A stretch of 64,000 nt of DNA from an uncultured delta proteobacterium (GTDB lineage Bacteria; Desulfobacterota; Syntrophia; Syntrophales; UBA2185), in the NCBI GenBank assembly GCA_963695875.1, contig CAVOID010000015.1, positions 18,243-82,242 on the forward strand. Direction: 5' to 3'. The translations under genes and the position numbers were made by a program. Below, in pieces: positions 12,032 through 25,976 of this stretch (position 1 is the stretch's first letter; the number at the start of each line of letters is the position of its first letter). The notes below the pieces were generated by a model. That model was given only the letters and a program-made list of their open reading frames with translations. It was not told the origin of the DNA and searched no databases.

Positions 12032-14444
12032 ATGAAAATGAATAAAACCTTTAAAAGATGCAGGGTCTCTTTCCGAAGGTTCATTCCTTTATCAGCTTTC
12101 TTATGTCTTTTCATGTTGGTTCCCGCTTTTGGAAGTCTCTTTATTGGTACTGCCTTTTCATCGGAGGAATCGCCGGTTGTAAAGAATCCGGGTCTGAGTC
12201 CGAAGACATCAGGTTCGTCTGAAGGCCAATCGCCCGGAAAATATATAGACCAGGGAGTCCTTTCGTTTGATCGGGGCGCCTTTGATGATGCCATTGTAAA
12301 CTTCGAAGCTGCCATACGTTTGTGTGAGCAGGATACTAACAAGGTCAAGCAGTGCGAGGCACTAATAAGGCTGTCTCAGGCCAGTCATTTTACCGGCCAA
12401 TACAAGAAAGCACTGCAAAGCTTGGAAAAGGCCATGACCATTGCAAGAGAATTGAATGACGGACATCAAATTGCCGCTATCTTCGGTTCCATGGGAAATG
12501 TCTATATCGGAATGGGTAATGGTAATTTGGCTTTAGAAAATTTGAATCAGGGACTCCTTATCGCAAAAGAATCAGGATATGTCAGATGTGACAGCTGTCA
12601 TTCTGAACAATTTTGGGAACCTGTACGTTTCGCAGAACAAATATGATGACGCACTCAATGCATATCGGGAAAGCGCTCAGCAAGCGAAGAAAGCGAAGAA
12701 CATTTCGCTTGCAGTCCAGGCTGATATCAATGGGGCGACGGCCGCATTGAGAGGCGGTAAATATGCCGATGCCCGGAAGCAACTCGATAAGGCGGTGGGT
12801 CAACTTCGCAGTCTCGAAGATTCCTATGCCAAGGCTTACAGCCTCATCAACGCAGGCATTGTATACTCTGATCTTCGTGTGTATTATCCTGACCAAAAGC
12901 AGGTTCTTTTAAAGCAAGCTTACACTGCAATCAATGAAGCCCTTACTGTGGCCCAAAAGATAAACGACCAGAGAACAGTATCATATGCATACGGCTATCT
13001 CGGAAAACTGTATGAAGATGAACGTCAATATGAGGAGGCCCTCGAATTAACCAGACGGGCAATATTTGCGGCCCAACAGAAAAATGCAAACGAGGCTCTG
13101 TATAGATGGCACTGGCAGAGCGGACGGATTCTCGCCCATCTGGGTAACATAGATGAAGCAATTGTATCTTACAGAAATGCGATACATGACCTGCAGGCTA
13201 TCCGGGAGGAATTTGCTTCCTGCTATGCCAGTCCTGAATCGTCCTACCAAAAAACCGCAAGTGTCGTCAGTTTTGAAATGGTGAAATTGCTCCTCGAGCG
13301 TGCCTCCGTGCTCCAGAAAGGGGAGGCTGTCGAGCCTTATCTGGTCGAAGCCCGTGAGGCTTTAGAAATCTTGAAGGTGTTTGAGTTGCGGGAGTACTTC
13401 AAAGACGATTGCGTGGATGCCGCCCGATTTGTTGAGAAAAAACTGGATGTAGTTTCTGAGAAGGCCGTGGTAATTTATCCGATTCTGTTAGATGATCATG
13501 TGGAACTCCTGGTAAGCTTTTCAGGACGCCTCAAAAGATTTACACTCCCTGTGGGAGCAGTTGCCTTAACCAACGAGATCAGGGAATTCCGCAGAAAGCT
13601 CGAAAAACGAACCACAGGAGAGTACCTGCCCCATGCCCAGAAGCTTTATGACTGGATCATCCGACCTCTCGAAAAAGACCTTAATTCTGTGAAAATTGAT
13701 GCCGTTGTGTTCGTGCCGGATGGACCTCTCCGGACAATTCCCATGGCTGCGTTACACGATGGAAATAAATTTCTAATTAATCGTTACCCGGTTGCTATTA
13801 CCCCGGGATTAAATCTTACGGATCCGCGCCCCTTCAAACGGGAGAACGCAAAAGTACTGGCCCTGGGGTTGACCGAACCCAGGCAGGGGTTTCCCGGTCT
13901 GCCCTATGTATCCGGTGAGCTCAAGGCTATTAAACAACTTTATGGAGGGCAGTTCCTGCTGAATGGGGAGTTCCGTGTGTCTAATGTGGAAAAAGAGCTG
14001 AAGAAGGAACCCTTTAGTATTGTCCATATAGCCTCGCACGGCCATTTTGGGGGGGACGTGGGTGATACATTCCTCCTGGCATTTGATGAAAAGTTCACTA
14101 TAGATCGCTTCGGAGAGTATGTGGGTCTTTTCAAATTCCGTGATGAGCCCCTGGATTTACTCACATTGAGCGCATGTGAAACCGCCGCAGGGGATGACCG
14201 GGCAGCACTGGGCCTGGCTGGGGTTGCCATCCGGGCAGGCGCCAGGAGCGCTCTTGCAACACTTTGGCATGTCAATGATCCCGCATCTTATGAGTTGATC
14301 GTAGAATTTTACAAACAGCTACAGCATCCGTCTGTCTCGAGAGCCGCGGCACTCCAGGCAGCACAACTCAAACTGCTCGGAGATCTGCGCTACGATCATC
14401 CCGGTTACTGGGCGCCTTTCATTTTGATCAACAACTGGTTGTGA
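12032..14444 (+). CDS. Exported TPR-CHAT (caspase-HetF family) protease (frameshift near 12580)
   Basis: Hydrophobic N-terminus; TPR helices; FVPDGPLRTIPMAAL, HIASHG (His), LSACET (Cys), LATLWHVND, HPGYWAPF. Confidence 0.92.
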
Positions 14445-14459
14445 GGTTGCCTGCAAGGT

Positions 14460-16400
14460 ATGGCACAGTTTCTCAAATTCATCCAGAAACCCATCATCGT
14501 CAAATTGATGGGAGGTCTCCTCGTTTTTCTGCTTATCGTGGGTTTGCGAAACAGCGGACATCTCGAATTTCTGGAACTCGCAGCGTATGACTGGTTCATA
14601 CGCATGGAGCCGAAACTCTCCAGCGGAGATCCCAGGATAACGCTCATAGAGATTTCCGAAAAAGACATTCATGCCCATGGCCGCTGGCCCCTGACGGATG
14701 AGGCCCTCGCCAAAGCCATGAATATTCTCGTCAAGGATAATCCCCGTGCCGTTGGCCTGGACATTTATCGCGATATTCTCGTGCCTCCAGGAAGCGAAGA
14801 ATTAAACGCCATCTTCGTCGAAAATCCTCAAATCATCGGGGTGATGACATTCGGCGAGAAGGGTGTGCGGCCGCCGGCGATCATCAGCAATACGGAGCAA
14901 GTGGGGTTTAACGACATACTTGTCGATCCCGGAGGTATTGTGAGGAGAGCGCTTATCTTTCTGGATGACGGTGAGAATGTGTATAATTCTTTTGCCCTCC
15001 GGCTCGCTTCTCTTTATCTTCATGCGGAAGGAATTGCTCTACAGGCTGATCCGGAAAATCCGCAATACATCCGTCTGAAGGATACTACGATAAAACCTTT
15101 TGAGGCAAATGACGGGGGCTATATTAAGGCGGATGCTAGAGGTTACCAGTTTCTTCTGGACTTCGAGAACGCGGGCTTGCCTTTTCGGTCCTATTCTTTC
15201 TCCAAGCTGTTATCCGGTGAAGTTCCAGCGGAAGCGATCGCCGATAAAATAATCCTAATCGGCGTCAGCGCCCAGAGCGTCAAAGACTTTTTTTATACAC
15301 CGCTGAGCAAAGGTTTCGAAGAGGTCCAGCAGGTTCCCGGTGTTGTTCTGCACGGACACATTATAAGCCAACTGCTGAGGTTCGCCCTCGACGGAACTTC
15401 ACCGCTAAAGACATTGCCGGAAACGCAGAAGCTCATCTGGATCTTGCTCTGGAGCCTCACAGGAGGTTTGATCGGACTCCGCATACGCTCCGTATGGCGC
15501 TTCTCTATGTTGATCTTAGGCGGCTTGGTGCTTCTTTGTCTTGCGTCATATTTTGCCTTTCTTGCCCGCTGGTGGATTCCCCTGGTGCCTCCAGCTCTAT
15601 CATTCTTCATATCCGCTGTTGTCGTCACGGCCTACATGTCAAGCCATGAAAAGAAAGAGCGGGCCCTCCTGATGCAGCTCTTTTCGAGACATGTGTCAAA
15701 AGAAATTGCGGAGATCATCTGGCAGCAGAAGGATCAGTTTCTGAACGACGGCCGTCCCCGATCCCAGAAAATGACGGCTACCGTTTTTTTCTCCGATTTA
15801 AAGGGTTTTACAACGATGTCCGAAAAGATGGACCCGCAGGAGCTTATCGACTGGCTGAACGCCTATATGGAACCTATGACGCGCTTGATTATGGAGCACG
15901 GCGGGGTCATCGATGACTATGCCGGGGATGGCATCAAGGCGAACTTCGGTGTGCCGCTGCCGCGGAAAAATGAAGATGAGGTGCGCTCGGACGCCATGAA
16001 TGCAATTAACTGCGCTCTTGCCATGGAGAAAGAAATGTGCCGCCTCAATGCCTTCTGGAGCCAAAAGGGGCTTCCCGCCATGGGGACGCGGGTCGGCATC
16101 TTTACCGGGACTGTTGTGGCGGGCCTTCTGGGAAGCTCAAAGCGATTAAAGTACACCACCGTCGGCGATACCGTTAACATTGCCGCGCGGCTGGAAAGTT
16201 ATGACAAAGAAGTGTGCAAAGATGCCCTCTGCCGCATCCTCATCGGTGAGCCGACTTTGCGCCATGTCAACGGCCAGTTTAAGACAGAAAGAATAGGAGA
16301 GGTCAGCCTGAAAGGAAAGGATGAAAGAATAATCGTTCACCGGGTGCTGGGTGATGAATCTCCCGGCTCTCAAGCAATATCAAAGGAGGGAATATCATGA
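14460..16400 (+). CDS. CHASE2-domain class III nucleotidyl cyclase
   Basis: CHASE2 (WP..D, GLDIYRD, D..GIVRR, PGVVLH); 3 TM helices; FSDLKGFT, GDG, GDTVNIAARLES. Confidence 0.93.
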   Translation: MAQFLKFIQKPIIVKLMGGLLVFLLIVGLRNSGHLEFLELAAYDWFIRMEPKLSSGDPRITLIEISEKDIHAHGRWPLTDEALAKAMNILVKDNPRAVGLDIYRDILVPPGSEELNAIFVENPQIIGVMTFGEKGVRPPAIISNTEQVGFNDILVDPGGIVRRALIFLDDGENVYNSFALRLASLYLHAEGIALQADPENPQYIRLKDTTIKPFEANDGGYIKADARGYQFLLDFENAGLPFRSYSFSKLLSGEVPAEAIADKIILIGVSAQSVKDFFYTPLSKGFEEVQQVPGVVLHGHIISQLLRFALDGTSPLKTLPETQKLIWILLWSLTGGLIGLRIRSVWRFSMLILGGLVLLCLASYFAFLARWWIPLVPPALSFFISAVVVTAYMSSHEKKERALLMQLFSRHVSKEIAEIIWQQKDQFLNDGRPRSQKMTATVFFSDLKGFTTMSEKMDPQELIDWLNAYMEPMTRLIMEHGGVIDDYAGDGIKANFGVPLPRKNEDEVRSDAMNAINCALAMEKEMCRLNAFWSQKGLPAMGTRVGIFTGTVVAGLLGSSKRLKYTTVGDTVNIAARLESYDKEVCKDALCRILIGEPTLRHVNGQFKTERIGEVSLKGKDERIIVHRVLGDESPGSQAISKEGIS

Positions 16401-17150
16401 ATAACCTGAAACTAATAGTAATCGTCGGGCTTATTGCGGCGCTGCCGTTTCTCACCGGCGCAGCAGATGAGGGTAAGACAAAGCGGTCTGATGAAAATAC
16501 CCAAACAGATCAAAAAGCGAAGCAGGTTACGACCGTGGGCAAGCCCGTATACAAACCGCCTCTCCGCGGATCGCCAGCCGGGCGTGTGGGGGGTGGAACG
16601 CGCGGGATGACAGAAAGGGAGTCCTTTTCTCTACAGGTCCTGGCGCCGGACCACATTGGTTTGACGATCCAGGATCAACCCTGTCTCTACTGGTACGTAT
16701 CGAAACCAATCCCTTATCCTGTTGAACTGACCGTTATTGAAAGAAATGCAGTGAAACCACTTCTTGAAAAGATCATCAAGGGTCCTGATAAGGGTGGCAT
16801 CCAATTCATTCGTTTAGCCGATTATGCTGTGCATCTGCGTCGGAATGTCCCATACAAATGGTTTGTGACCCTTGTGACCGATTCCAATCACCGTTCCAAA
16901 GATATTCTGGCAGGTGGCATAATAACACTGGTTGAACCGCCGCCATCGCTATTCGGCCAAACTCAAGGCGGCAGACAGCGGCAAAGCGCCCTATATTTAC
17001 GCCGAGGAGGGGCTATGGTATGATGCGCTGGGAGCGATATCAGGGATGATCGATGCTTCACCGAATAATGTGGATCTCCGCAAACAGCGCGCCTCCCTTT
17101 TAGAACAGGTAGGTTTAAGTGAAGTTGCAGAATTTGAGAATCGGCAATAA
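16397..17150 (+). CDS. DUF928-family exported protein (frameshift near 16955)
   Basis: YKPP..GSPAGRVGGGTR, LAPDHIGLT..QP.LYWY; second frame YAEEGLWYDAL..LLEQVGL. Confidence 0.85.
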
Positions 17151-17329
17151 GTGTTTAAAAAACAAATAGAAACAAAACTGACATAAATTATAGAATAGGC
17201 TGATGCTTTGTATATGATGGGCGTGAAGTCTGTGAATGCCAACCCGTCGACCAGACAACGAAAGTGACCTTTGATATAGATGGACACGTGAAGGAAGTAA
17301 GGGAAATCCATAAGGAACAGTAGACTGCC

Positions 17330-18256
17330 ATGAACGAGAACGAGAGCGGGAAAAAGGGACTTACGGGGAGCAGAGTTTTCGGGCAATTGCCCAAAGAGAA
17401 GTGGGATGAGCTCACTAGGGCTATGGAGAACCAGGTGGTAGCACGGCGTACGATCATCTTCAGGCAGGGGGATCCAGGGGACAAGTTTTACATTATCCAT
17501 TCAGGGAAAGTGAGGGTGTTCAGGAAGGACGCTGATGGATTGGAGACGGACTTGTCTTTGCTGGGAGCGGGTGAAAGCTTTGGTGAGATGGCCCTGCTGA
17601 CAGGTGAGACGAGATCAGCGAACGTGGAGGCGGTAGAAGAGACCCGCCTAAAGGTGCTTTCCAAAGAGCAATTTGAGCTTATTCTGAAGGACTTTCCCCA
17701 TATTTCCCTGGCCTTTGTGAAGCAGATGTCGGGATGGCTTCTGAGGGATGAGAAGACCATTGAGAAGGAAGCGCAACAACTTTACCGGGCACATCACATA
17801 TCCTGGTTTGATTTTCTGCTGGTGATCGGGGTGAGTGTAATTCTAGCCCTCGTGTTCAATAAGTCTAACCCGAACGGGATACCCCTGTTTCCGAAGTTTC
17901 CTGACAGGAAAGCGATTTCCGAGATCAGCGCTGCTCAGGCGATGGAAGAGGTGAAGAAGGGCGAAGCGCTCATCGTGGATGCTGGTCCTGAAGCCTTCTA
18001 TGAAAAGAAACATATCCAGGGGGCGATCAGCATACCGCTCTCTCTTTTTGATATAGTGTATACGATGGCCTTTGGAGGGAATGAGAAGGGGAAAAAGGTG
18101 ATTGTGTACGGAGGAACATTCAGCAAGCTCTATGATTGGGAGCTGGCGGACAAGCTCCTTCTTCGGGGGCATAAGGATGTGAAGGTGTTGGAGGGGGGGA
18201 TGGCGACCTGGGAAAAAAAGGGCTATCCGGTGGAGGAGGAGAAAGGGAAGGAATGA
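17330..18256 (+). CDS. cNMP-binding domain / TM helix / rhodanese-like fusion protein
   Basis: [32 protein letters not shown] helix; [29 protein letters not shown]. Confidence 0.9.
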
Positions 18257-18756
18257 TCCATACATTTCTAAAACAGATTGTGACGAGTCCGTATCTGGCG
18301 CTGATTCTGAGGGTGTTCGTGGGCTATATCTTTCTGTACGCTAGCGTGAGCAAGATACCGCACCCTGCGCAGTTTGCGGAAGCGACGGCAGCCTATCAAC
18401 TGATCCCGTACTGGTTTCTGAATGTGGGGGCTATACTATTGCCGTGGATCGAGTTTGTGAGCGGGCTGTTTCTGATCATCGGGCTGAGGACGAGGGCGGC
18501 GGCAACCCTCATCGGTCTGATGTTGATCATGTTCACCGTGATGGTCCTGACCAACATGTACTGGGGAGCGTCTATTACGTGTGGGTGTTATGATACGGTG
18601 GGGGAGCCTATTGGGTGGAAGAAGGTCAGTGAGGACATATTACTGCTCCTCTTCACGATACAGATTTACTTCTGTGACAGGTTGTTCATCTTCCGCAGGG
18701 GGGGCTTAATGCCCAGCATAAAGGGCATGGTCGCTACTCTGACAGGATTGCAATAA
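18253..18756 (+). CDS. MauE/DoxX-family membrane protein
   Basis: [31 protein letters not shown] motif; overlaps the upstream stop (ATGA). Confidence 0.88.
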
Positions 18757-18764
18757 GGTGGCCT

Positions 18765-19130
18765 ATGATGCACACATCAAGATTTCAGGATTATGGATTG
18801 ATGGTTGGTCTTTGCGTGCTTCTGATGCTTCTGCTCTCATGTGAGTCCAAGGATAAATACGCGGGAGTATACAAAGCGGTGGGGAATGAGTCGGTGAAGC
18901 AGGGGGAGACCGTCTTGGAATTGAAGGGGAATGGGGATGGTCTGTGGAGAGTGGCCTCTGATGAGGTAGCGGGAACCTTCGTAGAGGTCCCCTTTGTGTG
19001 GTACATCAAGCAGGGGGAGTTGCGGGTGAACACCAGAGCAGGGGGAGTGATTGTGGGGAAGATAGGGAAGGACACCATTCAGATGACCCTCCCAGGCTCC
19101 AAAGTGATGACCTTCAAGAAGATCCAATAA
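18765..19130 (+). CDS. Hypothetical lipoprotein
   Basis: Lipobox LLLSC after a hydrophobic stretch; last gene of the + strand run. Confidence 0.7.
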   Translation: MMHTSRFQDYGLMVGLCVLLMLLLSCESKDKYAGVYKAVGNESVKQGETVLELKGNGDGLWRVASDEVAGTFVEVPFVWYIKQGELRVNTRAGGVIVGKIGKDTIQMTLPGSKVMTFKKIQ

Positions 19131-19156
19131 GTCCAGAGGTCGAATCTCGGAAGCAG

Positions 19157-19585
19157 CTATCTATTCCCATTGGGTTCGACTGGATACTTCGCTACCTCCC
19201 AGGCCCTCCATCCGCCCTTCAATGCGTATATCTTCTTGTATCCTTTCTCCATGAACTGCAGTGCCGCACGGGCACTGGTCGCTTCATCGTGTCACTTACA
19301 ATAAAAAACTAATGTTTTCTCTTTTGGATACTTGTTGATCCAGGAGGTAAGATAGCGGACGTCCTCGTGAACAGCCCCCTTGATCTTGTTCTTGCTGTTC
19401 TCCCAGTCGTGGACCGTCCTCACATCGATAACGATGACATCGGGATTCACAAGCTGCGCTTTCAGCCCATCAATAGACATCTTCTGCACACTCTCGGGGG
19501 TGAGCTCCGTCGCGGCGAAACTAACCGTTCCCGCGAAACCCACCGCAAGCACCATCAAGGCCAGAAAGAATACTGTTTTTCTCAT
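19157..19585 (-). CDS. Exported rhodanese-domain selenoprotein candidate, 142 aa, Sec at codon 98 (YCKUHDEATSARAA)
   Basis: In-frame TGA at 19294-19292; the frame continues with a normal rhodanese C-terminus KGYKKIYALKGGWRAWEVAKYPVEP; SECIS-like hairpin; signal peptide. Confidence 0.9.
19259..19294 (-). promoter_or_regulatory. Bacterial SECIS-like element
   Basis: UGA, 16 nt, then GUGCC-CGUGC-GGCAC; the stem extends to CAGUGCC/GGCACUG. Confidence 0.8.
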
Positions 19586-19810
19586 TTATCCCTCCTTTTG
19601 CGCCGGTCAATTGTTAAGGGTTACTTCTTAAGTCTCTTCTCATATTTTTTGGAAGGTCATTTATGGCTACTGTAAGTAAATCGGCTGGGTTCTTGTCATG
19701 CTCAACGGCAACAAATCTTAGTTTCTTTATAAACGTGCTAATCAAGACGAAATGATACCACTTTTCAGATAGTCTTGAGCGTGTATTAATCACCCCGCAT
19801 CGCTTCAAGA

Positions 19811-20122
19811 TTACTGGATGATCTGCGGTTTCCCTTCGATCGGGAATTCTTGCTTGGCCAGACCCTCTACAATCTTCTCGATACTGGTTTTTGCATCGTC
19901 GAATTTTACCGTGACTTCGTGAGTTAATTGGTTCGCATCATATTGCAGCACGCCCGGGATTTCCTTCAGGGTAGCACGTACCCATTTAGCCGAGTCCGGT
20001 CACTCACATCCGGGAACTACCATTTTGACAATTCTTTCGGCAGCAAAAATGGGTTGTGATGCGACGAGCAGGAACATCACACTCAAAAGACAGACGATCA
20101 GGGAATGTTTACTCCGCTTCAT
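19811..20122 (-). CDS. Exported HMA (MerP/CopZ-like) selenoprotein candidate, 103 aa, Sec at codon 41 (VPGCEUPDS); absent from the ORF track
   Basis: MKRSKHSLIVCLLSVMFLLVASQPIFAAERIVKMVVPGCE-TGA-PDSAKWVRATLKEIPGVLQYDANQLTHEVTVKFDDAKTSIEKIVEGLAKQEFPIEGKPQIIQ; RBS GAGGGG; HMA-fold pattern. Confidence 0.87.
19969..20002 (-). promoter_or_regulatory. Bacterial SECIS-like element
   Basis: UGA, 16 nt, then GGGUA-CGUGC-UACCC. Confidence 0.8.
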
Positions 20123-20294
20123 GGGTATTCCCCTCAATATTTTTGGGTTAGATTATACGGATGCCTCTTTCTAAGAGATGGGTCTTCTATACATAGTTTA
20201 CATTTTTTATTTCTCAAACAAATTGGTTAAATCGGATAGAAGGGTTAAGTGGATAAGATATAAATGAACGAATATAATTTTATACTTATGTGAA

Positions 20295-20323
20295 TTTATA
20301 TAGTGATTCTTCTTCTATGTCAA
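20295..20323 (-). promoter_or_regulatory. Sigma70-type promoter upstream of the Sec-HMA and Sec-rhodanese genes
   Basis: TTGACA-17 nt-TATAAA. Confidence 0.6.
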
Positions 20324-20741
20324 GCTAATTTTGTCACTAAATATGTCCGGTATAGCTGTCGATTTCCACGAGTATGCTTGTGAGAGTTTTTCGATGATCG
20401 CTGGTAGATATCAGAAGGTCAAGCATTTGTATGAATTTCTCCCCGGTCTCATGATCTCTAAAAACATAGGGAGAATTCCGTTCTCTAAACTATATGTGCC
20501 AACAGAGTAGAAGATTACCGTTAAAAACATTCACTTTCACTGCCCACGTTATGGTACCTCATAAAAAATAAATCATGCCCCTTCTCTCTTTCAAAAATTA
20601 CTCTCCGGTGGATGGAAGGATGCTCATATTGGGCAAAAGTCATATCTGGCAAAGATCAGGACGCATATTTTTTACAGCGAGCAAGGCTCCTCCATGCAGC
20701 CGGAAAAAGAAAATGATCAAAGAACCAGATGACCAAATAAC

Positions 20742-21260
20742 CTATTTGGCAGAACGCACCGGGAGAACCCGGCTGCTGATGACGTACGACTGGGGATTCC
20801 AACTCCGTTCGCCGTACCGGAAATTGAAGACGGCGGCGGCGGAATCGCGCGTCGCCGAGTTCCATAACCAAAAACAGGTAATATCTATCAACTCCGTTGC
20901 GATATGAATATTATAGCTTCGATTGCATGCTCCTGGACGGGATTTACTCGCATCATACAGCCCCATCAATTCATCCTGCGTTGGCATCCGCCAGTCCGTA
21001 TAGCCGCCGCCGCGATAATTCTCGCAATAACTCTTGGCATCCGCCCAGTTTATGTTGCGTTCATTGTCCTTTGCCGCCCACATTAGGTTCGTCTGTGTGT
21101 CCAGGACCGTCCCATCATCATAGGCGATGAAACGACCGTCTCTGGCGATCTCTCCGGCTGCGGCATATTCTGCAAAAACAAAAGTACCTATATAAAAAAC
21201 CAACACCATTGCCGCAATGAAAAAGCCCTTTCTCAAGTCAGTCATACGTTCACCTCTCAT
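20742..21260 (-). CDS. Exported DUF1566 (Lcl/C-type-lectin-like) protein
   Basis: RFIAYDDGTVLDTQTNLMW..INWADAKSYCE..GGYTDWRMPTQDEL..RVLPVR; the start may be 21245. Confidence 0.88.
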   Translation of the reverse strand: MRGERMTDLRKGFFIAAMVLVFYIGTFVFAEYAAAGEIARDGRFIAYDDGTVLDTQTNLMWAAKDNERNINWADAKSYCENYRGGGYTDWRMPTQDELMGLYDASKSRPGACNRSYNIHIATELIDITCFWLWNSATRDSAAAVFNFRYGERSWNPQSYVISSRVLPVRSAK

Positions 21261-21326
21261 AATTCTAATCTCTAGGGGTTAAATTTCCCTAAGCTTACTT
21301 CGCTCGTAAAGGACCCGAACCTTCAG

Positions 21327-21358
21327 ATACCCCGCAGCTTGCTGCCAGGGTAGTTCAT
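21327..21358 (+). repeat. Miniature palindromic element, right-end copy
   Basis: ATACCCCGCAGCTTGCTGCCAGGGTAGTTCA parallels AGATTCTCCGGAGCTTGCTCCGGAGAGCTTCA at the end of the 52558-52674 element. Confidence 0.6.
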
Positions 21359-21464
21359 TTTGTTTTTTCCACTAACCGCTTGGCTTTCCGGCGTTGCCAC
21401 AGTATTTCAACGATGTATCCGTAGGCTCCAGCCACTCACAAAAATTGACGGATGATTAAGACAC

Positions 21465-21497
21465 AAAACCCCGCTCTCGCTTGAGAAACGGGGTTTC
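21465..21497 (-). terminator. Intrinsic terminator-like hairpin
   Basis: Minus strand AAACCCCGTTTCTC-AAGC-GAGAGCGGGGTTTT. Confidence 0.7.
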
Positions 21498-21883
21498 GAT
21501 AAGCTCTTCATGGCACCACCCTTACAAAAAGGGTTCAGACTAGTTGTTAACCTTTTGACGATGCCCTATTTAAATATGATTATTTTTTGCTCTCAATTCT
21601 TTGAAAAGTCAAGAGACAAATTTCATTGATAATCATTTGAAAGGATGTATATCTATCAAAACCACGGGACACTGCCTTCACCCTCAGAATCTATTATCCA
21701 TGAGACCTAACGATTACCATTGTAAGAATCAATATTTCCCTAACATTAATGGTTAGGAGGAAGTAGCGGATTATCGCTGTCACCCGAGAGCTGTGCAGAT
21801 CAATTTGAAAGCGATTATCATGACAAGTCGCTAAGACGAAAAATCAAAAAACCTATTACCGAGGTTACAATAAGAAAATTAAT

Positions 21884-22315
21884 TTATTTAGGTTCGATTG
21901 GATACCCCGCATCCGTCCAGGCATGAAAACCACGCTTGAGGGCGCTTACCTTTTTAAAGCCATTGTCCAATAATATCTGTGCCGCACGGGCACTTGTCGC
22001 TTCATCGTGTCAGGTACAGTATGTAATGATCTCTTTGTCCCTCGGCAGTTCGTTGCTTCTGACCTCCAGTTGAACTATGGGAATCCTGATGGCCCCTCTT
22101 ATCCTGATCTTGCTATCGGCATATTCTCGTCCCGCTCGGACATCAACAATCACTATGTCCTCACCTTTATCCATCTTAGCCTTCAGTTCCTGCACTGTGA
22201 TTCTTGGAACTACATCGTCTGCAGATAAAACAACCGATACGATCAGCTGATTCAGTACACCGAAGAGCAGAGAAAGAAAGAGACCCTTTAAAAACCATCT
22301 CATCGCCATCCTCAT
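21884..22315 (-). CDS. Second exported rhodanese-domain selenoprotein candidate, 143 aa, Sec at codon 102 (YCTUHDEATSARAA)
   Basis: In-frame TGA at 22012-22010; continues QILLDNGFKKVSALKRGFHAWTDAGYPIEPK-TAA; hydrophobic N-terminus. Confidence 0.9.
21979..22012 (-). promoter_or_regulatory. Bacterial SECIS-like element
   Basis: UGA, 16 nt, then GUGCC-CGUGC-GGCAC. Confidence 0.8.
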
Positions 22316-22447
22316 CTCATCCTTCCGGGGTAAAATGCTTCTTAATTGCTGTGTCTAAAACTTACTGAATAACAAGTCGAGATCCAGACTTTATTATAAT
22401 GCATTAAGCCAGCTCAAAAATTGGGTGGGTCGTGGGTTGCTTGTTTA

Positions 22448-22933
22448 TTATTCCTTTTTTACTGAACGGGGGAAACAGCATTCCCAACTTGGCATACCAT
22501 CTTCCTCGTTGCGAAGTTTCATGGTGAAATCACCCTTGCTTATTTCCGTGGCAATGATCGCATTACCATACTTCTTACCCCTTACTTCAACCTTGTCGCC
22601 GGCCATAAATTTGATCTTCTGATTTTCAATGAACCACTTGGGTCCCATATAGACGACATACTTGTTATTCTGATCCGTAATGAATCTCATCTGCAGACCG
22701 TCTTTCACACCTTTCATCGGCTCAACTCTCGTTACTTTACCGGGCTCCACCACTATTGCTTCCATTCCCGTAAATGATGTCTCGGCATCAAGTCCGGGAA
22801 CTCCCAAAGTCCATGCACCCCTTGATACAGGGCCCGAGGACTGAGATGCCTGAGCAAACAGCTCTGGTGCGAAAGTCATGCTCACCAAGAACATCATTGC
22901 AACTACAACCGTCCAACGTGCTACCTTTCTCAT
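22448..22933 (-). CDS. Exported OB-fold-like hypothetical protein
   Basis: Signal peptide from MRKVAR with RBS AAGGAGG; VYMGPKWFI..GDKVEVRG..LRNEEDGMPSW; ends WECCFP. Confidence 0.7.
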   Translation of the reverse strand: MRKVARWTVVVAMMFLVSMTFAPELFAQASQSSGPVSRGAWTLGVPGLDAETSFTGMEAIVVEPGKVTRVEPMKGVKDGLQMRFITDQNNKYVVYMGPKWFIENQKIKFMAGDKVEVRGKKYGNAIIATEISKGDFTMKLRNEEDGMPSWECCFPRSVKKE

Positions 22934-23229
22934 ACTTTCCTCCTTGGTATCATTGTTTTGACCCACCCGATTTCGAGCTTAACGATTTAAAAAATGAACC
23001 TTCCATACCTCGTGACATCATCTTGTATCCCCTATGGGGTGATGATCCTGTCCAACACTCTGTTCTTTTTTGCGCAATCTGCAGGGATGGCTCCGGTACA
23101 AATAATATCTTTTGACTGCTATTAGTGTCAATCTCTAAATGCTGCATCATGCAACAGTTTATAATCAGGTATAGACTGATTTGTGGCTTCGAAATTCCTG
23201 CAGTAATCGCCCAATGTTGCATACAGGAA

Positions 23230-23325
23230 CGGAAAAGCCCGAAGCGATTGAGTTGGCAAAATTGGCTTCGGGCTTCTCTGGAAACGACCGGCCTCAAAGA
23301 AGGAGGAGGCATGAAAACAAAATAT
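23230..23325 (-). ncRNA. Candidate ~95-nt sRNA or attenuator leader
   Basis: Lies between a consensus promoter and terminator AAGCCCGAAGC..GCTTCGGGCTTTT; internal hairpin GCCTC-CTCCTTCTTT-GAGGC. Confidence 0.45.
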
Positions 23326-23331
23326 ATTTTA

Positions 23332-23360
23332 ATTATAAGCCTTTAGAAAGAGTCAGTCAA
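23332..23360 (-). promoter_or_regulatory. Sigma70 promoter
   Basis: TTGACT-17 nt-TATAAT. Confidence 0.7.
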
Positions 23361-23368
23361 TCCTTTTT

Positions 23369-23776
23369 CTATCAGTGCTGCTTCGCACATCGTTTTAACC
23401 TTATGTCCCTCCTTAATATTTTTAAGCCTGTTTATAATATTAGGTATTTGTTACTATTATTATGTATTCCCTGTTTATGGATTGCCTTCCTAAATGGATT
23501 AAAAAACACTGAACTTGGGCCGCTAACACCGCCGCGTTAGGGTTGAAGAAGTAATATTCTTATCATTTAGAATATTGCAGAGTACATTTTCTAGTTATAT
23601 TGTTATACAGATTCTAAGGTTTAATGGAAGTTATATTATTATTAAATTATAAATAAGAAAATAGTAAGGCAAAATTACTATTATGACAGGGTCTGCAGGT
23701 GGGTTCTGAGATTGACCTTCTGTTCAATTATTCCTAATTTGTCCCTGATGTGACAGCGATGCGCACCGACAGCACT
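23369..23776 (-). repeat. Copy 2 (inverted) of the luxR-3'/promoter module; includes a luxR C-terminal remnant and a dead start of an RCC1-like gene
   Basis: Encodes SAVGAHRCHIRDKLGIIEQKVNLRTHLQTLS-stop versus SAVSLHRYHIREKLGIIDQKINLRTHLQSLS; RBS kept, ATG changed to GTT. Confidence 0.9.
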
Positions 23777-23800
23777 TGCAATCTCCAACACATTTATCAT

Positions 23801-23829
23801 TTGACATTAAAACATTAGAAAATTACACT
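23801..23829 (+). promoter_or_regulatory. Sigma70 promoter of the hybrid kinase
   Basis: TTGACA-17 nt-TACACT. Confidence 0.6.
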
Positions 23830-23849
23830 ATAAAAAATCTCAATTTGTT

Positions 23850-25976
23850 ATGAGATTGCTGTGTTTTTCTTATATACCAGACAGCCATGGTGAAAATGAA
23901 GGGAACAGCCCCGTGAAAAATGATTTAAAAACAACTCAGGAACTTGTTGAGGAGCTGGCTTCTGTAAAACATAGAATTGCAGAGCTGGAGCAAGCTGAGA
24001 AGAAACATCTCACAATCATTCAAAATATCCGGGACGGCATCTATATGCTCGACAGCTCCGGTAAGTTCACATTTGTCAATGATGTGATTATAGAGCGCTC
24101 TGGCTTCCCGGCAGAGTGGTTTTTAGGCAGAAGTTATCTCGATGTCGTCAGCACAGAAGACCGTGAACGCGTGCAGAGCATTTTCAACGCTTCGAAGGAT
24201 GGGAGAACACGTACTTACGATCTTTATCTTTCTTATCCAACTGCCTCCGGGAAACTTATATGTGTCGAGGTGTGTGCAGTGCCTCTCTTAGACGGTGATA
24301 AAGTGATTGGTCGGATAGGTATCTCACGTGACGTCACCGAACGTAAACAGATGGAAGAGGTCTTAAGGGCAAGTGAAACTAGTTTCCGGCGTATTTTCAA
24401 TCAATCACCCATTGGAGCAGCGATTGTAACACCGAATAATCGTTTTGCCCTCGTTAATGAAGCCCTATGTCGCATGATGGGATACACGGAGAAGGAATTA
24501 ACGTCGTTTACATTCACAGACATCACACACCCCGACCACTTGGCCACTGATACAGAACAGGTGAAACGTCTTGTTGCCGGAGAGATCGACGAGTATGCAA
24601 CCGATAAAAGGTATATTCGCAAGGACGGCGCTGTCATCTGGGGACGATTGTCGGTGCGGGCAATCAGAGACGCGACGGGCCGTCTTCTTTATTCTTTGCC
24701 GTTTGTAGTCGATATCACTGAACGCAAGCAGGCGGAGGAGGCTCTGAAAGAGACAGAACGAAGGTTATACGAGATTATTGAGGAGTTAAAAATTGCCAAA
24801 GAGTCAGCCGAAGCCGCCACACGTGCAAAGACGGATTTTCTGGCCAACATGAGTCACGAGATCAGGACACCGATAAATGCGATCATCGGATTATCCAACC
24901 TCTTCTGGAATACGGACGTCTCGGTCAAGCAACGCGATTACTTGAACAAAATAGAGACTTCGGCCAGGTCCCTGCTGGGAGTCATCAATGATATCCTGGA
25001 TATCTCCAAAATCGAGGCGGGCAAGCTGGAGATGGAATACGTCGATTTCCGGTTGCATGACATCATGAACAACATAACCACCATGTTTTCCGCGAAGGCC
25101 ATTGAAAAGAGGATCGAACTTATGGTGTCCATAGCAGGGGATGTGCCGTGCGAGTTGTTGGGAGATCCCTTACGCCTGGAGCAGGTGCTGGTGAATCTAA
25201 CGGGCAATGCGGTCAAATTCACGGAGTCAGGATTGATTATGGTAAAGGCAGAACTGATTGAAAAGGATGCAGTGCGCTGCAGACTGAGATTTTCCGTTAT
25301 GGATTCCGGCATAGGGATGACCGGAGATGAGATATCCAGGCTCTTTGCGGCCTTCTCTCAGGCGGACAGTTCCATAACCAGGAAGTTTGGCGGCACGGGT
25401 CTTGGCTTGGCCATTTCGAGGCGGCTGGTGGAGATGATGGGTGGGGAGATACATGTGGAGAGTGAGCCAGACAGAGGCAGCACCTTCACTTTTACGGTGG
25501 AGTTCGGATGGCAGCCGGAGGTGTGGGATGATAAAAAAGGAAAGATCGCCGCTCAGCCAGCGGCGGACTTCACGGGAGCGCGGTTGCTTTTGGTTGAGGA
25601 TAATCTTATAAATCAGGAGGTAGCGAGAGAGATTCTGGAAGGCGCCGGTTTCGTAGTTGATGCGGTGAATAATGGCCTTGAAGCGGTGGAGGCAGTGCGC
25701 TCAAATGACTATGACGCTGTAGTCATGGATGTGGAGATGCCGGTGATGAGCGGATACGAAGCCACACGTCTGATCCGGGGAGATGCTCGCAGCAAGGATC
25801 TGCCGATCATTGCCATGACCGCTCATGCCCTTCAGGAAGTGCGAGAAGAATGCCTGGCGGTTGGTATGAACGACTATGTTACAAAGCCGATAGAAAAGGG
25901 CTGGGTGTTTTCAGTCCTTAGCCGTTGGGTGAAGCCCCGGTCATTGGTCCGGGACAGTAAAACGGCAACTGATTAG
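23850..25976 (+). CDS. PAS-PAS hybrid histidine kinase with receiver domain
   Basis: FLANMSHEIRTP, NLTGNAVKFT, DSGIG, GGTGLGL, LLVEDN..MDVEMP..KP; start uncertain (23888 or 23913 possible). Confidence 0.93.
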   Translation: MRLLCFSYIPDSHGENEGNSPVKNDLKTTQELVEELASVKHRIAELEQAEKKHLTIIQNIRDGIYMLDSSGKFTFVNDVIIERSGFPAEWFLGRSYLDVVSTEDRERVQSIFNASKDGRTRTYDLYLSYPTASGKLICVEVCAVPLLDGDKVIGRIGISRDVTERKQMEEVLRASETSFRRIFNQSPIGAAIVTPNNRFALVNEALCRMMGYTEKELTSFTFTDITHPDHLATDTEQVKRLVAGEIDEYATDKRYIRKDGAVIWGRLSVRAIRDATGRLLYSLPFVVDITERKQAEEALKETERRLYEIIEELKIAKESAEAATRAKTDFLANMSHEIRTPINAIIGLSNLFWNTDVSVKQRDYLNKIETSARSLLGVINDILDISKIEAGKLEMEYVDFRLHDIMNNITTMFSAKAIEKRIELMVSIAGDVPCELLGDPLRLEQVLVNLTGNAVKFTESGLIMVKAELIEKDAVRCRLRFSVMDSGIGMTGDEISRLFAAFSQADSSITRKFGGTGLGLAISRRLVEMMGGEIHVESEPDRGSTFTFTVEFGWQPEVWDDKKGKIAAQPAADFTGARLLLVEDNLINQEVAREILEGAGFVVDAVNNGLEAVEAVRSNDYDAVVMDVEMPVMSGYEATRLIRGDARSKDLPIIAMTAHALQEVREECLAVGMNDYVTKPIEKGWVFSVLSRWVKPRSLVRDSKTATD

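Follow-up and report, generated by a model that had tools for sequence, protein, structure and literature searches.

In a 64,000-nucleotide (nt) stretch of DNA from an uncultured Syntrophales bacterium (contig CAVOID010000015.1 of assembly GCA_963695875.1, forward-strand positions 18,243 to 82,242; hereafter the window), three plus-strand genes encode a cyclic-nucleotide (cNMP)-binding protein with a rhodanese-like domain, a MauE-family membrane protein and a small lipoprotein. This trio is convergent with a minus-strand gene for an exported rhodanese, rhodanese 1, that carries selenocysteine (Sec, U in protein motifs) in a C-x-U motif. We propose that the locus encodes a MauE-centred periplasmic redox pathway with an exported selenoprotein as its client, a reading to which we give a probability of roughly one half. 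The trio and a Sec-rhodanese recur together in two gene arrangements, which supports a functional tie between the convergent arm and the C-x-U Sec-rhodanese. The genes concerned, with the hairpins that resemble Sec insertion sequences (SECIS), are as follows; positions are counted from the first letter of the window.

17330-18256, plus strand: protein with a cNMP_binding domain, a transmembrane (TM) segment and a Cys-less Rhodanese domain (Pfam cNMP_binding 89.8 bits, Rhodanese 46.1 bits)
18253-18756, plus strand: MauE-family four-helix membrane protein (Pfam MauE 92.3 bits), its CGC motif encoded at 18580-18588
18765-19130, plus strand: small lipoprotein with the lipobox LLLSC, third member of the trio
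19157-19585, minus strand: rhodanese 1, exported, C-x-U, 142 residues, UGA at 19292-19294 (NF041203, 160.9 bits)
19259-19277, minus strand: SECIS hairpin of rhodanese 1, 7 bp, loop CGUGC
19811-20137 (likely ATG at 20122), minus strand: MerP-like HMA selenoprotein, exported, UGA at 20000-20002 (Pfam HMA 38.1 bits)
19967-19985, minus strand: SECIS hairpin of the HMA gene, of which the five inner pairs GGGUA/UACCC form in the window, loop CGUGC
21884-22315, minus strand: rhodanese 2, exported, C-x-U, 143 residues, UGA at 22010-22012 (NF041203, 123.7 bits)
21979-21993, minus strand: SECIS of rhodanese 2, inner 5-bp stem

A metagenome scan with the cNMP-rhodanese returned 47 loci. The trio is intact in 38 of these, six contigs end within the first gene and three match the cNMP domain only. 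MauE and the lipoprotein follow the cNMP-rhodanese in 38/38 loci that extend far enough, and the trio also occurs in a genome of another family (G093) at 52% identity. An exported redox-motif gene stands beside the trio in 28/47 loci. In 18 it encodes a C-x-U Sec-rhodanese (TGA seen in 16, the sequence being cut before the site in two); these rhodaneses fall into two sequence subtypes and lie convergent downstream of the trio in eight loci and upstream in ten (eight divergent, two on the same strand). A U-x-x-C ResA/TlpA-like selenoprotein is encoded directly upstream on the same strand in eight (TGA seen in seven, cut in one), as it is in G093. This protein has 192 residues and, among NCBIfam models, scores highest with ResA, at 38-41 bits well short of the cut-off; the loci that carry it lack a Sec-rhodanese (L097:3073-3648, L099:2633-3208, L092:2658-3233, L095:669-1244 and L059:5738-6295; also L094, L088 and L086). 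One locus has a CxxC form of the ResA/TlpA-like protein and one a C-x-U HMA protein directly upstream. Where at least 900 nt upstream and at least 1100 nt downstream of the trio are available, 8/8 loci carry such a gene. The link between trio and partner survives both rearrangement and a swap of the partner fold, from rhodanese to thioredoxin-like or the reverse. Conservation of the neighbourhood, which the sequence-only reading of this DNA had put forward as a check, is found for the trio and its redox-motif neighbour; the full window arrangement is largely kept in close relatives only (L019, L022, L080, L081 and L117, with cNMP-rhodaneses 86-95% identical), and there the MamS/MamX-like gene, the outermost of the cluster, changes place.

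Open reading frames (ORFs) were called with translation table 11 and, for the minus-strand selenoprotein genes, re-read with TGA as U; topology, TM helices and signal peptides of the locus proteins were assigned by eye. Between 19157 and 22315 on the minus strand, table 11 yields three short ORFs that end at TGA, and full domains appear once TGA is read as U. Judged from the sequence comparisons that follow, all three are genuine selenoprotein genes. Each has an in-frame UGA two codons past a Cys, as the sequence-only reading had claimed, and the position is conserved in homologues. The contexts are FYCKUHDEATSARAA in rhodanese 1 (core YCKUHDEATSARAA), VPGCEUPDSAKW in the HMA protein (core PGCEUPDS) and TYCTUHDEATSARAA in rhodanese 2 (core YCTUHDEATSARAA). 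The Pfam Rhodanese and HMA matches run through each UGA; they reach 54.9, 58.3 and 38.1 bits, each exceeding its gathering score. The signal-like N-termini proposed for the three proteins agree with our inspection by eye.

The matching SECIS-like hairpins described earlier were also borne out. In each of the three genes a stem closes on the same 5-nt loop, CGUGC, which occupies nt 25-29 (counting from the U of UGA). Folded singly, the hairpins are unexceptional against shuffles (z of -1.9, +0.7 and +0.9), and it is from the alignments alone that their support comes. Across homologues the shared helix occupies columns 18-24/30-36, and loop position 2 keeps G. Pairing reaches 93.7% in 25 HMA sequences, with double-sided changes at 4/7 pairs, and 85.7% in 41 rhodanese sequences, with double-sided changes at 5/7; in both sets 0/500 shuffles reach the covariation score, and slid controls, with partners shifted by 1-3 columns, pair at 50% or less.

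In 30/30 rhodanese loci fetched from elsewhere in the order, the codon at U is a stop (listed as TGA). Among 29 distinct HMA loci the codon is TGA in 26 (16 CxU, 10 CxxU), Cys in two and unclear in one, and 137/145 rows of HMA matches listed across Syntrophales genomes carry TGA. Cys/Sec pairs, proposed at the outset as a check, exist in both families: HMA homologues read CAC in L025 and CEC in L026, with further Cys forms in database entries P0047-P0050, and rhodanese P0023 reads CAC. Contigs from four public DNA runs (three studies; peat and freshwater sediment) span all three UGA sites, and none of the differences in the rows listed for those contigs falls at them; a further 197 rows lie outside that listing. 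In public protein databases the homologues P0034-P0046, P0009, P0017, P0019 and P0022 are cut at Cys-x or have Trp in place of Sec, as though a different genetic code had been applied to TGA. A real Trp at this position (GCEW, YCAW) was rejected for the family, because all fetched DNA has TGA there.

The source assembly, which is 82.6% complete, contains most of the Sec machinery whose presence had been put forward as a check: selA (609 bits), selD (395 bits, with a TGA of its own) and a tRNA-Sec (76 bits, anticodon TCA). selB is present as well, split over two frames. The genome holds further selenoprotein genes, for example an OsmC-like one on contig C11.

The convergent arm is as the sequence-only reading described it, a cNMP-rhodanese followed by a MauE with a CGC motif, and the lipoprotein gene, unmentioned there, is an addition. 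By eye, the cNMP-rhodanese has a cytoplasmic cNMP-binding domain, a TM segment at about residues 158-176 and a periplasmic rhodanese-like domain. The rhodanese loop reads VYGGTFS, with Gly in place of the catalytic Cys, and VYGGT[FI]S is found in all orthologues listed; by its motif, this domain is a pseudo-rhodanese. The family comprises 693 clusters at E<=1e-30, with Syntrophales and Syntrophorhabdales among the source names; the full-length protein is found in 4/201 Syntrophales genomes and is abundant in metagenomes. The MauE start overlaps the cNMP-rhodanese stop by 4 nt. The lipoprotein follows MauE in every locus that extends far enough. It has no Pfam or NCBIfam match; in the Atlas it falls among lipoprotein clusters, with a weak lipocalin lead.

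MauE has lately been proposed as the second most common DsbB-like enzyme. According to the available portion of a 2026 preprint, the MauE proteins of Desulfatibacillum and Caldithrix stand in for DsbB in E. coli, the active site is a periplasm-facing CXC in the TM3-TM4 loop, a conserved Lys in TM1 and a Glu in TM2 lie near a predicted quinone site, and the enzyme is expected to work through an intermediary with a thioredoxin fold, for instance MauD or DsbA (bioRxiv 10.64898/2026.03.05.709764). The window MauE bears these marks, and on them the oxidase reading is built. It scores 92.3 bits against a Pfam gathering score of 27 and has CGC at residues 110-112 between TM3 and TM4. The CGC is present in 39/39 orthologue matches; 50 diverse representatives all keep C110 and C112, and at least 90% conservation is seen at K34 and E67. 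The CGC is a hallmark of the entire MauE family and not peculiar to this locus. The genome has a single MauE match, no DsbB match and one VKOR homologue. A complex prediction for MauE with residues 150-308 of the cNMP-rhodanese scored 0.19 against a mark of 0.32, which is no evidence either way.

Both window rhodaneses are members of NCBIfam family NF041203, "rhodanese_LYCAU" (cut-off 115 bits; rhodanese 1 scores 160.9 and rhodanese 2 scores 123.7), which the available text of a 2026 selenoproteome review catalogues as rhodanese form 3 with the motif CxU (PMC13188914). We see no protein-level difference from that family; Y-C-x-U is followed by E-A-T-S, and Y95, C96, U98, T103 and S104 are invariant in 28 sequences. 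U98 of rhodanese 1 is a gapless match to the catalytic Cys of 6mxv_A, the closest relative among PDB matches, with C96 two residues earlier; a lower-scoring alignment to YnjE puts C96, not U98, at the catalytic position. Given the gapless placement, U98 and C96 could form an internal selenenylsulfide. Rhodanese matches were found in 48 of the 201 Syntrophales genomes searched, and 11/30 fetched loci of the order have a U-x-U variant, already known from Olavius symbionts in 2007 (PMC1976440).

In the pathway that we propose, we infer the MauE activity (from other MauE proteins), the direction of the electrons, the identity of the client, its substrate and the cNMP control. MauE would act as a DsbB-like quinone-linked thiol oxidase with its CGC facing the periplasm. 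The client in the window would be C-x-U rhodanese 1 and probably also the neighbouring C-x-U MerP-like protein; in some other lineages it would be the MauD-like U-x-x-C protein. The CGC loop would swap a disulfide with the Cys-x-Sec pair of the client, in which Sec would hold the catalytic position of the rhodanese loop and the Cys two residues before it would be the resolving residue. A selenenylsulfide would form and electrons would pass to menaquinone. The oxidised selenoprotein could then serve as a periplasmic oxidant or sulfane-sulfur carrier, in the way that DsbA and MauD serve DsbB and MauE, and protein thiols, sulfide or sulfane sulfur, and metal thiolates are candidate substrates. 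PspE, a periplasmic rhodanese able to support disulfide formation as described in the available text of PMC5403849, is a precedent. Finally, cNMP binding on the cytoplasmic side of the single-pass partner may tune the module.

Cyclic-nucleotide control had been suggested by the sequence-only reading and is plausible: the domain, at 89.8 bits (PF00027), is predicted to be cytoplasmic, its phosphate-binding Arg-Ser-Ala (R95 S96 A97) is invariant in 32 cNMP-rhodanese sequences, and cyclase genes lie nearby. Within a few kb of the trio there are nucleotide-cyclase genes both in the window and at six or more further loci (including L097:5585-9022 and L022:3672-4730). In L097 a zinc-ribbon-cyclase-AAA-TPR protein gene converges on the lipoprotein gene, and in the window the stretch just upstream of the trio (12579-17023) encodes a probable CHAT/TPR protein (by eye), a CHASE2-adenylate/guanylate cyclase and a DUF928 protein.

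Several observations weigh against the MauE-centred pathway. No direct evidence joins MauE to any selenoprotein, and most Sec-rhodaneses do without the trio (48 against 4 of the 201 genomes, counting the full-length cNMP-rhodanese). The contexts of the rhodanese family, with a TlpA/ResA-like neighbour at 10/13 rhodanese-2 loci and with octahaem fusions, suggest electron input. MauE was once reported as a reductase, an earlier report acknowledged in the available text of the same preprint (bioRxiv 10.64898/2026.03.05.709764), and it need not be the general oxidase here, because the genome has a VKOR homologue. Client genes are missing from 19/47 loci, of which 13 carry the trio with at least one flank too short, three are cut in the first gene and three match the cNMP domain only; L090 has 1277 nt upstream and 997 nt downstream in which nothing was found. 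The locus counts overstate the number of independent events, since the loci are mutually related, and perhaps two or three rearrangements and one partner swap lie behind them. The HMA gene lies elsewhere in 22/24 genome loci examined, beside housekeeping or redox genes. Lastly, selB lies in two frames in this assembly, which meet near C9:81430 (207 and 164 bits; span C9:79843-81742) and overlap near a GGGG run. An assembly indel at the G-run is the likeliest cause, though not proven, because the genome keeps many intact Sec genes; a real frameshift is the alternative.

The outer part of the cluster adds the following features.

20742-21260, minus strand: exported Lcl_C/DUF1566 protein (Pfam Lcl_C 69.1 bits)
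21405-21680, no strand assigned: copy of a dispersed repeat of about 270 nt (blastn), outside the proposed system
22448-22966 (likely ATG at 22933), minus strand: MamS/MamX-like exported protein (Atlas score 0.98)

The MamS/MamX-like gene and rhodanese 2 form a separate, duplicated two-gene cassette. The MamS-like protein has an Atlas similarity of 0.98 (235/256 features) to clusters carrying PF26390; it has no Pfam or NCBIfam match, the PF26390 model being either unmatched or absent from the Pfam copy used. It had been described as an exported protein ending in Cys-Cys. The Cys-Cys in fact stands nine residues before the C-terminus (…SWECCFPRSVKKE); it is kept in four MamS-like paralogues of the genome and replaced by Ser-Ser in the L019 and L022 orthologues. 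This genome has four MamS-like copies and another has up to ten. The gene lies directly upstream of a rhodanese-2-type gene in 11/18 fetched loci and in two loci of the genome itself, and the remaining 7/18 have other rhodanese types. A convergent TlpA/ResA-like thioredoxin with WCPEC accompanies 10/13 of the rhodanese-2 cassettes, and the trio accompanies none of them. Two of the four MamS-like copies, on C4 and C5, are followed by apparent rhodanese remnants, seen as antisense ORF similarity only.

About 400 nt upstream of the window copy (22967-23400) are 92% identical to the upstream region of a paralogue (C5:210081-210481), so a long leader or promoter region belongs to the duplicated unit; C8 and C4 have shorter matches to it, of 86 nt. 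A DoxX-family gene (C4:177798-178202; L177:2299-2700) stands about 440 nt upstream of a MamS-like paralogue with an apparent decayed rhodanese remnant downstream. The Lcl_C/DUF1566 gene and the repeat sit between the HMA gene and rhodanese 2. The former is a recurrent yet facultative neighbour, seen beside the cluster also in L022, L079, L081 and L083. The repeat, which contains a GC-rich hairpin, is found by blastn on C10 and C7 as well (85-90% identity), and in 4/4 public DNA runs its contig depth is raised. An Rfam search over 15000-25000 gave nothing relevant, and a scan for sigma-70 promoters and terminators was uninformative; one called 'terminator' is the SECIS stem of rhodanese 2.

These facts bear on a deflationary explanation, that there is no system and that independent exported selenoprotein genes have come together by lineage-specific synteny and local duplication. 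It accounts well for the confinement of the full arrangement to close relatives, for the cassette duplicated around the genome with its decayed remnants, and for the further selenoprotein genes in the genome. The link between the trio and its partner, which outlives rearrangement and the change to a non-homologous partner fold and reaches 52% identity in another family, is what it fails to explain; pure chance synteny is unlikely because that link recurs across loci, and we regard this explanation as improbable. The single envelope system that the sequence-only reading had drawn around all these genes is accordingly reduced: the trio remains tied to the C-x-U Sec-rhodanese, the MamS-like gene and rhodanese 2 belong to their own cassette, and the HMA gene joins in the closest relatives only.

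Electrons might instead run the other way. The Sec-rhodanese could handle sulfane sulfur, polysulfide or selenite reductively, its selenolate capturing polysulfide sulfur, the Cys resolving and sulfide being released; the selenenylsulfide would be re-reduced by a TlpA/ResA-like protein, by a multihaem cytochrome or by MauE acting as a reductase, in a small sulfur-reducing or detoxifying unit. This overlaps the MauE-centred oxidase reading and does not exclude it, the two differing in electron direction and substrate. Evidence for it comes from one Syntrophales family, in which an N-terminal NF041203 domain is fused to an exported octahaem cytochrome. The fusions are of about 540 residues with eight CxxCH (L041:298-1914 and L055:304-1914, both minus strand; also L044, L047, L048, L050, L053 and L057). 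Of the loci examined, 7/8 have eight CxxCH. The rhodanese motif, CxU or UxU, supplies one or two Sec; its domain matches NF041203 at 155 and 151 bits, and the weak resemblance of the haem part to HAO/hydrazine dehydrogenase (85 bits) stays far from that model's cut-off of 900. A literature search for a rhodanese-octahaem cytochrome selenoprotein found no paper.

The convergent WCPEC thioredoxin of the rhodanese-2 loci points the same way, as does the presence of the Wolinella Sud chain 1qxn_A among the PDB matches of the rhodanese. That periplasmic Sec can drive such chemistry is shown by the multihaem protein MccSep, for which polysulfide reduction is proven and which reduces selenite as well, as set out in the available text of PMC13510729. 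Against this, the MauE proteins tested so far are oxidases in the preprint text available (bioRxiv 10.64898/2026.03.05.709764). The octahaem and TlpA contexts belong to other family members and not to rhodanese 1, and none of the ten annotated ORFs at 14460-22966 was recognised as a psr, hydrogenase or cytochrome gene. Electron flow from menaquinol to a polysulfide-type couple would, by established redox potentials, be uphill. We rank reductive handling second, as a tentative possibility, because its supporting contexts belong to other members and because the tested MauE proteins are oxidases.

The HMA protein had prompted the suggestion of soft-metal handling, in which a C-x-U MerP-like protein captures Hg, Cu, Ag or Cd and the rhodaneses or MauE service it. 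The protein scores 38.1 bits against Pfam HMA (PF00403; gathering score 24.8), and its best NCBIfam match is MerP (TIGR02052) at 41.6 bits, a match that includes the signal-peptide region and lies below the cut-off of 92.55. Ten HMA relatives reach 34-61 bits against the same model, all sub-cut-off, and MerP and CopZ scores stay below their cut-offs in 11/11 family members tested. The metal-loop motif of the window protein is G-C-E-U, which departs from the GMxCxxC motif of MerP in spacing as well as in residues. All members inspected begin with a signal-peptide-like segment (by eye). The exported C-x(1-2)-U family has matches in 119/201 Syntrophales genomes, and no NCBIfam model captures it; two families of the order use C-x-U, the remainder C-x-x-U. 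The HMA family was not found in the available table of the selenoproteome review, where HMA, MerP and PF00403 are absent as terms and HMA-type proteins are represented by two entries only, NF041115 (UxxU) and an E1-E2 ATPase (PMC13188914). The main texts on deep-Sep and BSepDB contain no rhodanese, metal or mercury terms, and their supplements might list the family. The HMA protein is a new or uncatalogued variant of known Sec-HMA proteins.

Its genomic setting gives the metal idea little help. The HMA gene belongs to the cluster only in the closest relatives (the window, L019, L022, L080, L081 and L117, and directly upstream in L125), and elsewhere its conserved neighbours are Maf, a YggS-type gene, a nucleotidyl transferase, POR subunits and DUF362; beyond the close relatives neither mer or cop genes nor a rhodanese gene turned up in its neighbourhoods. 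None of the ten annotated ORFs at 14460-22966 was recognised as a Cu/Hg transporter, reductase or regulator, the remaining window having not been searched for mer genes. The trio also stands far oftener with a rhodanese or thioredoxin-like selenoprotein than with an HMA protein. On the other side are the MerP match itself, the Sec-containing HMA relatives NF041115 and NF045683, catalogued as metal-related, and one HMA paralogue group (L024:6619-7980) in which a MerA/lipoamide-dehydrogenase-like flavoprotein precedes the HMA gene (GGTCVNVGCVPSK), below all cut-offs (343 bits against 454 for MerA). A soft-metal relay appears to us highly improbable.

Other relatives of the HMA gene show varied company. 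A second C-x-U HMA gene of this genome, 69% identical (C11:100387-101288; L179), lies directly downstream of the OsmC-like selenoprotein gene (Pfam OsmC 38 bits, one TGA). In L020, L021, L023 and L024 an AhpC/TSA-like ORF after the HMA gene is seemingly split by TGA and is possibly another exported selenoprotein. At L067:4563-5303 on the minus strand, a protein of 247 residues joins a C-x-U HMA domain to a C-terminal extension, thioredoxin-like by eye and without CxxC.

The MauE-centred pathway can be carried further than the evidence takes it. The trio might be a cNMP-gated, quinone-coupled selenol oxidase complex that recharges exported selenoproteins, the dead rhodanese docking a client whose identity would have changed between lineages (UxxC thioredoxin-like, CxU rhodanese or CxU MerP-like); the form with a rhodanese client would be a thiol-relay sulfide or sulfane-sulfur:quinone oxidoreductase, or its reverse, in syntrophic anaerobes. 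We consider this complete version unlikely. If true, it would amount to a selenium-dependent branch of envelope redox and sulfur metabolism in which a cytoplasmic second messenger controls a periplasmic activity.

The combination had been called undescribed. Literature searches for MauE with selenoprotein partners, for a rhodanese as such a partner and for cNMP pseudo-rhodanese or lipoprotein accessories found none, and the gene contexts reported here for NF041203 (MauE trio, MamS/MamX-like partner, TlpA-like neighbour, octahaem fusion) were not found in them either. In the available preprint text the terms rhodanese, selenocysteine and cyclic nucleotide are absent (bioRxiv 10.64898/2026.03.05.709764). 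The parts themselves are known, the rhodaneses as members of a catalogued family (PMC13188914, in its available text) and the MauE activity as newly published. What the locus and its 47 metagenomic relatives add is a set of candidate MauE partners outside methylamine clusters, which are often selenoproteins and not necessarily of the thioredoxin fold, and two accessory proteins, one of which would connect the module with cAMP or cGMP in the cytoplasm. The widespread NF041203 selenoproteins gain a testable context. An exported C-x(1-2)-U HMA family, truncated by gene callers, occurs in over half of the Syntrophales genomes searched, and the rhodanese-octahaem fusions may prove to be new enzymes of periplasmic sulfur or selenium redox chemistry in anaerobes of peat and sediment.

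Comparison with known systems places the locus among several partial relatives. DoxX/MauE-clan membrane proteins work with rhodanese-type sulfur chemistry in the DoxX-SseA-SodA complex of M. tuberculosis and in the DoxDA thiosulfate:quinone oxidoreductase; these belong to different subfamilies and are not known to have selenocysteine or a cNMP domain. MerP and the HMA selenoproteins share with the window protein the HMA fold, a MerP-like signal peptide and Sec in the loop between the first strand and the first helix. NF041115 is a UxxU metal-binding selenoprotein and NF045683 a MerT/CopZ fusion-like one; compared with MerP, these two and the Sec E1-E2 ATPase, the window protein has C-x-U (C-x-x-U in most of the order) in place of CxxC or UxxU, and its scores are sub-cut-off. 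The SAO system of Clostridioides and other anaerobes is likewise a conserved neighbourhood of several selenoproteins with Cys/Sec motifs outside the cytoplasm, built from other families (a MerB-like protein, an ABC transporter and a CC-COOH protein) and without MauE, rhodanese or cNMP domain (bioRxiv 10.1101/2022.07.06.499078). MccSep (ExtKL) also pairs a periplasmic Sec with a partner Cys for chalcogen-chalcogen chemistry in Desulfobacterota, on an unrelated five-haem cytochrome fold with no rhodanese domain, and the rhodanese-octahaem fusions are a different protein from the one described in the available text of PMC13510729.

Sud of Wolinella (PDB 1qxn) and PspE of E. coli are, like rhodaneses 1 and 2, small exported single rhodanese domains. 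Sud carries polysulfide sulfur and PspE can support disulfide formation (PMC5403849, in its available text). Both have a single catalytic Cys, whereas here a catalytic Sec with a Cys two residues before it would make an internal redox pair. With the MauE/MauD and DsbB/DsbA systems the window shares the four-helix MauE, the periplasmic CXC between TM3 and TM4 and the conserved Lys and Glu. As in MauE/MauD, a redox partner is encoded beside MauE at trio loci, and in one clade it has a thioredoxin fold like that of MauD. Here, in contrast, the partner is a selenoprotein, either a U-x-x-C thioredoxin-like protein or a C-x-U rhodanese that is not of the thioredoxin fold, and MauE is translationally coupled to a cNMP-binding, dead-rhodanese protein and followed by a lipoprotein.

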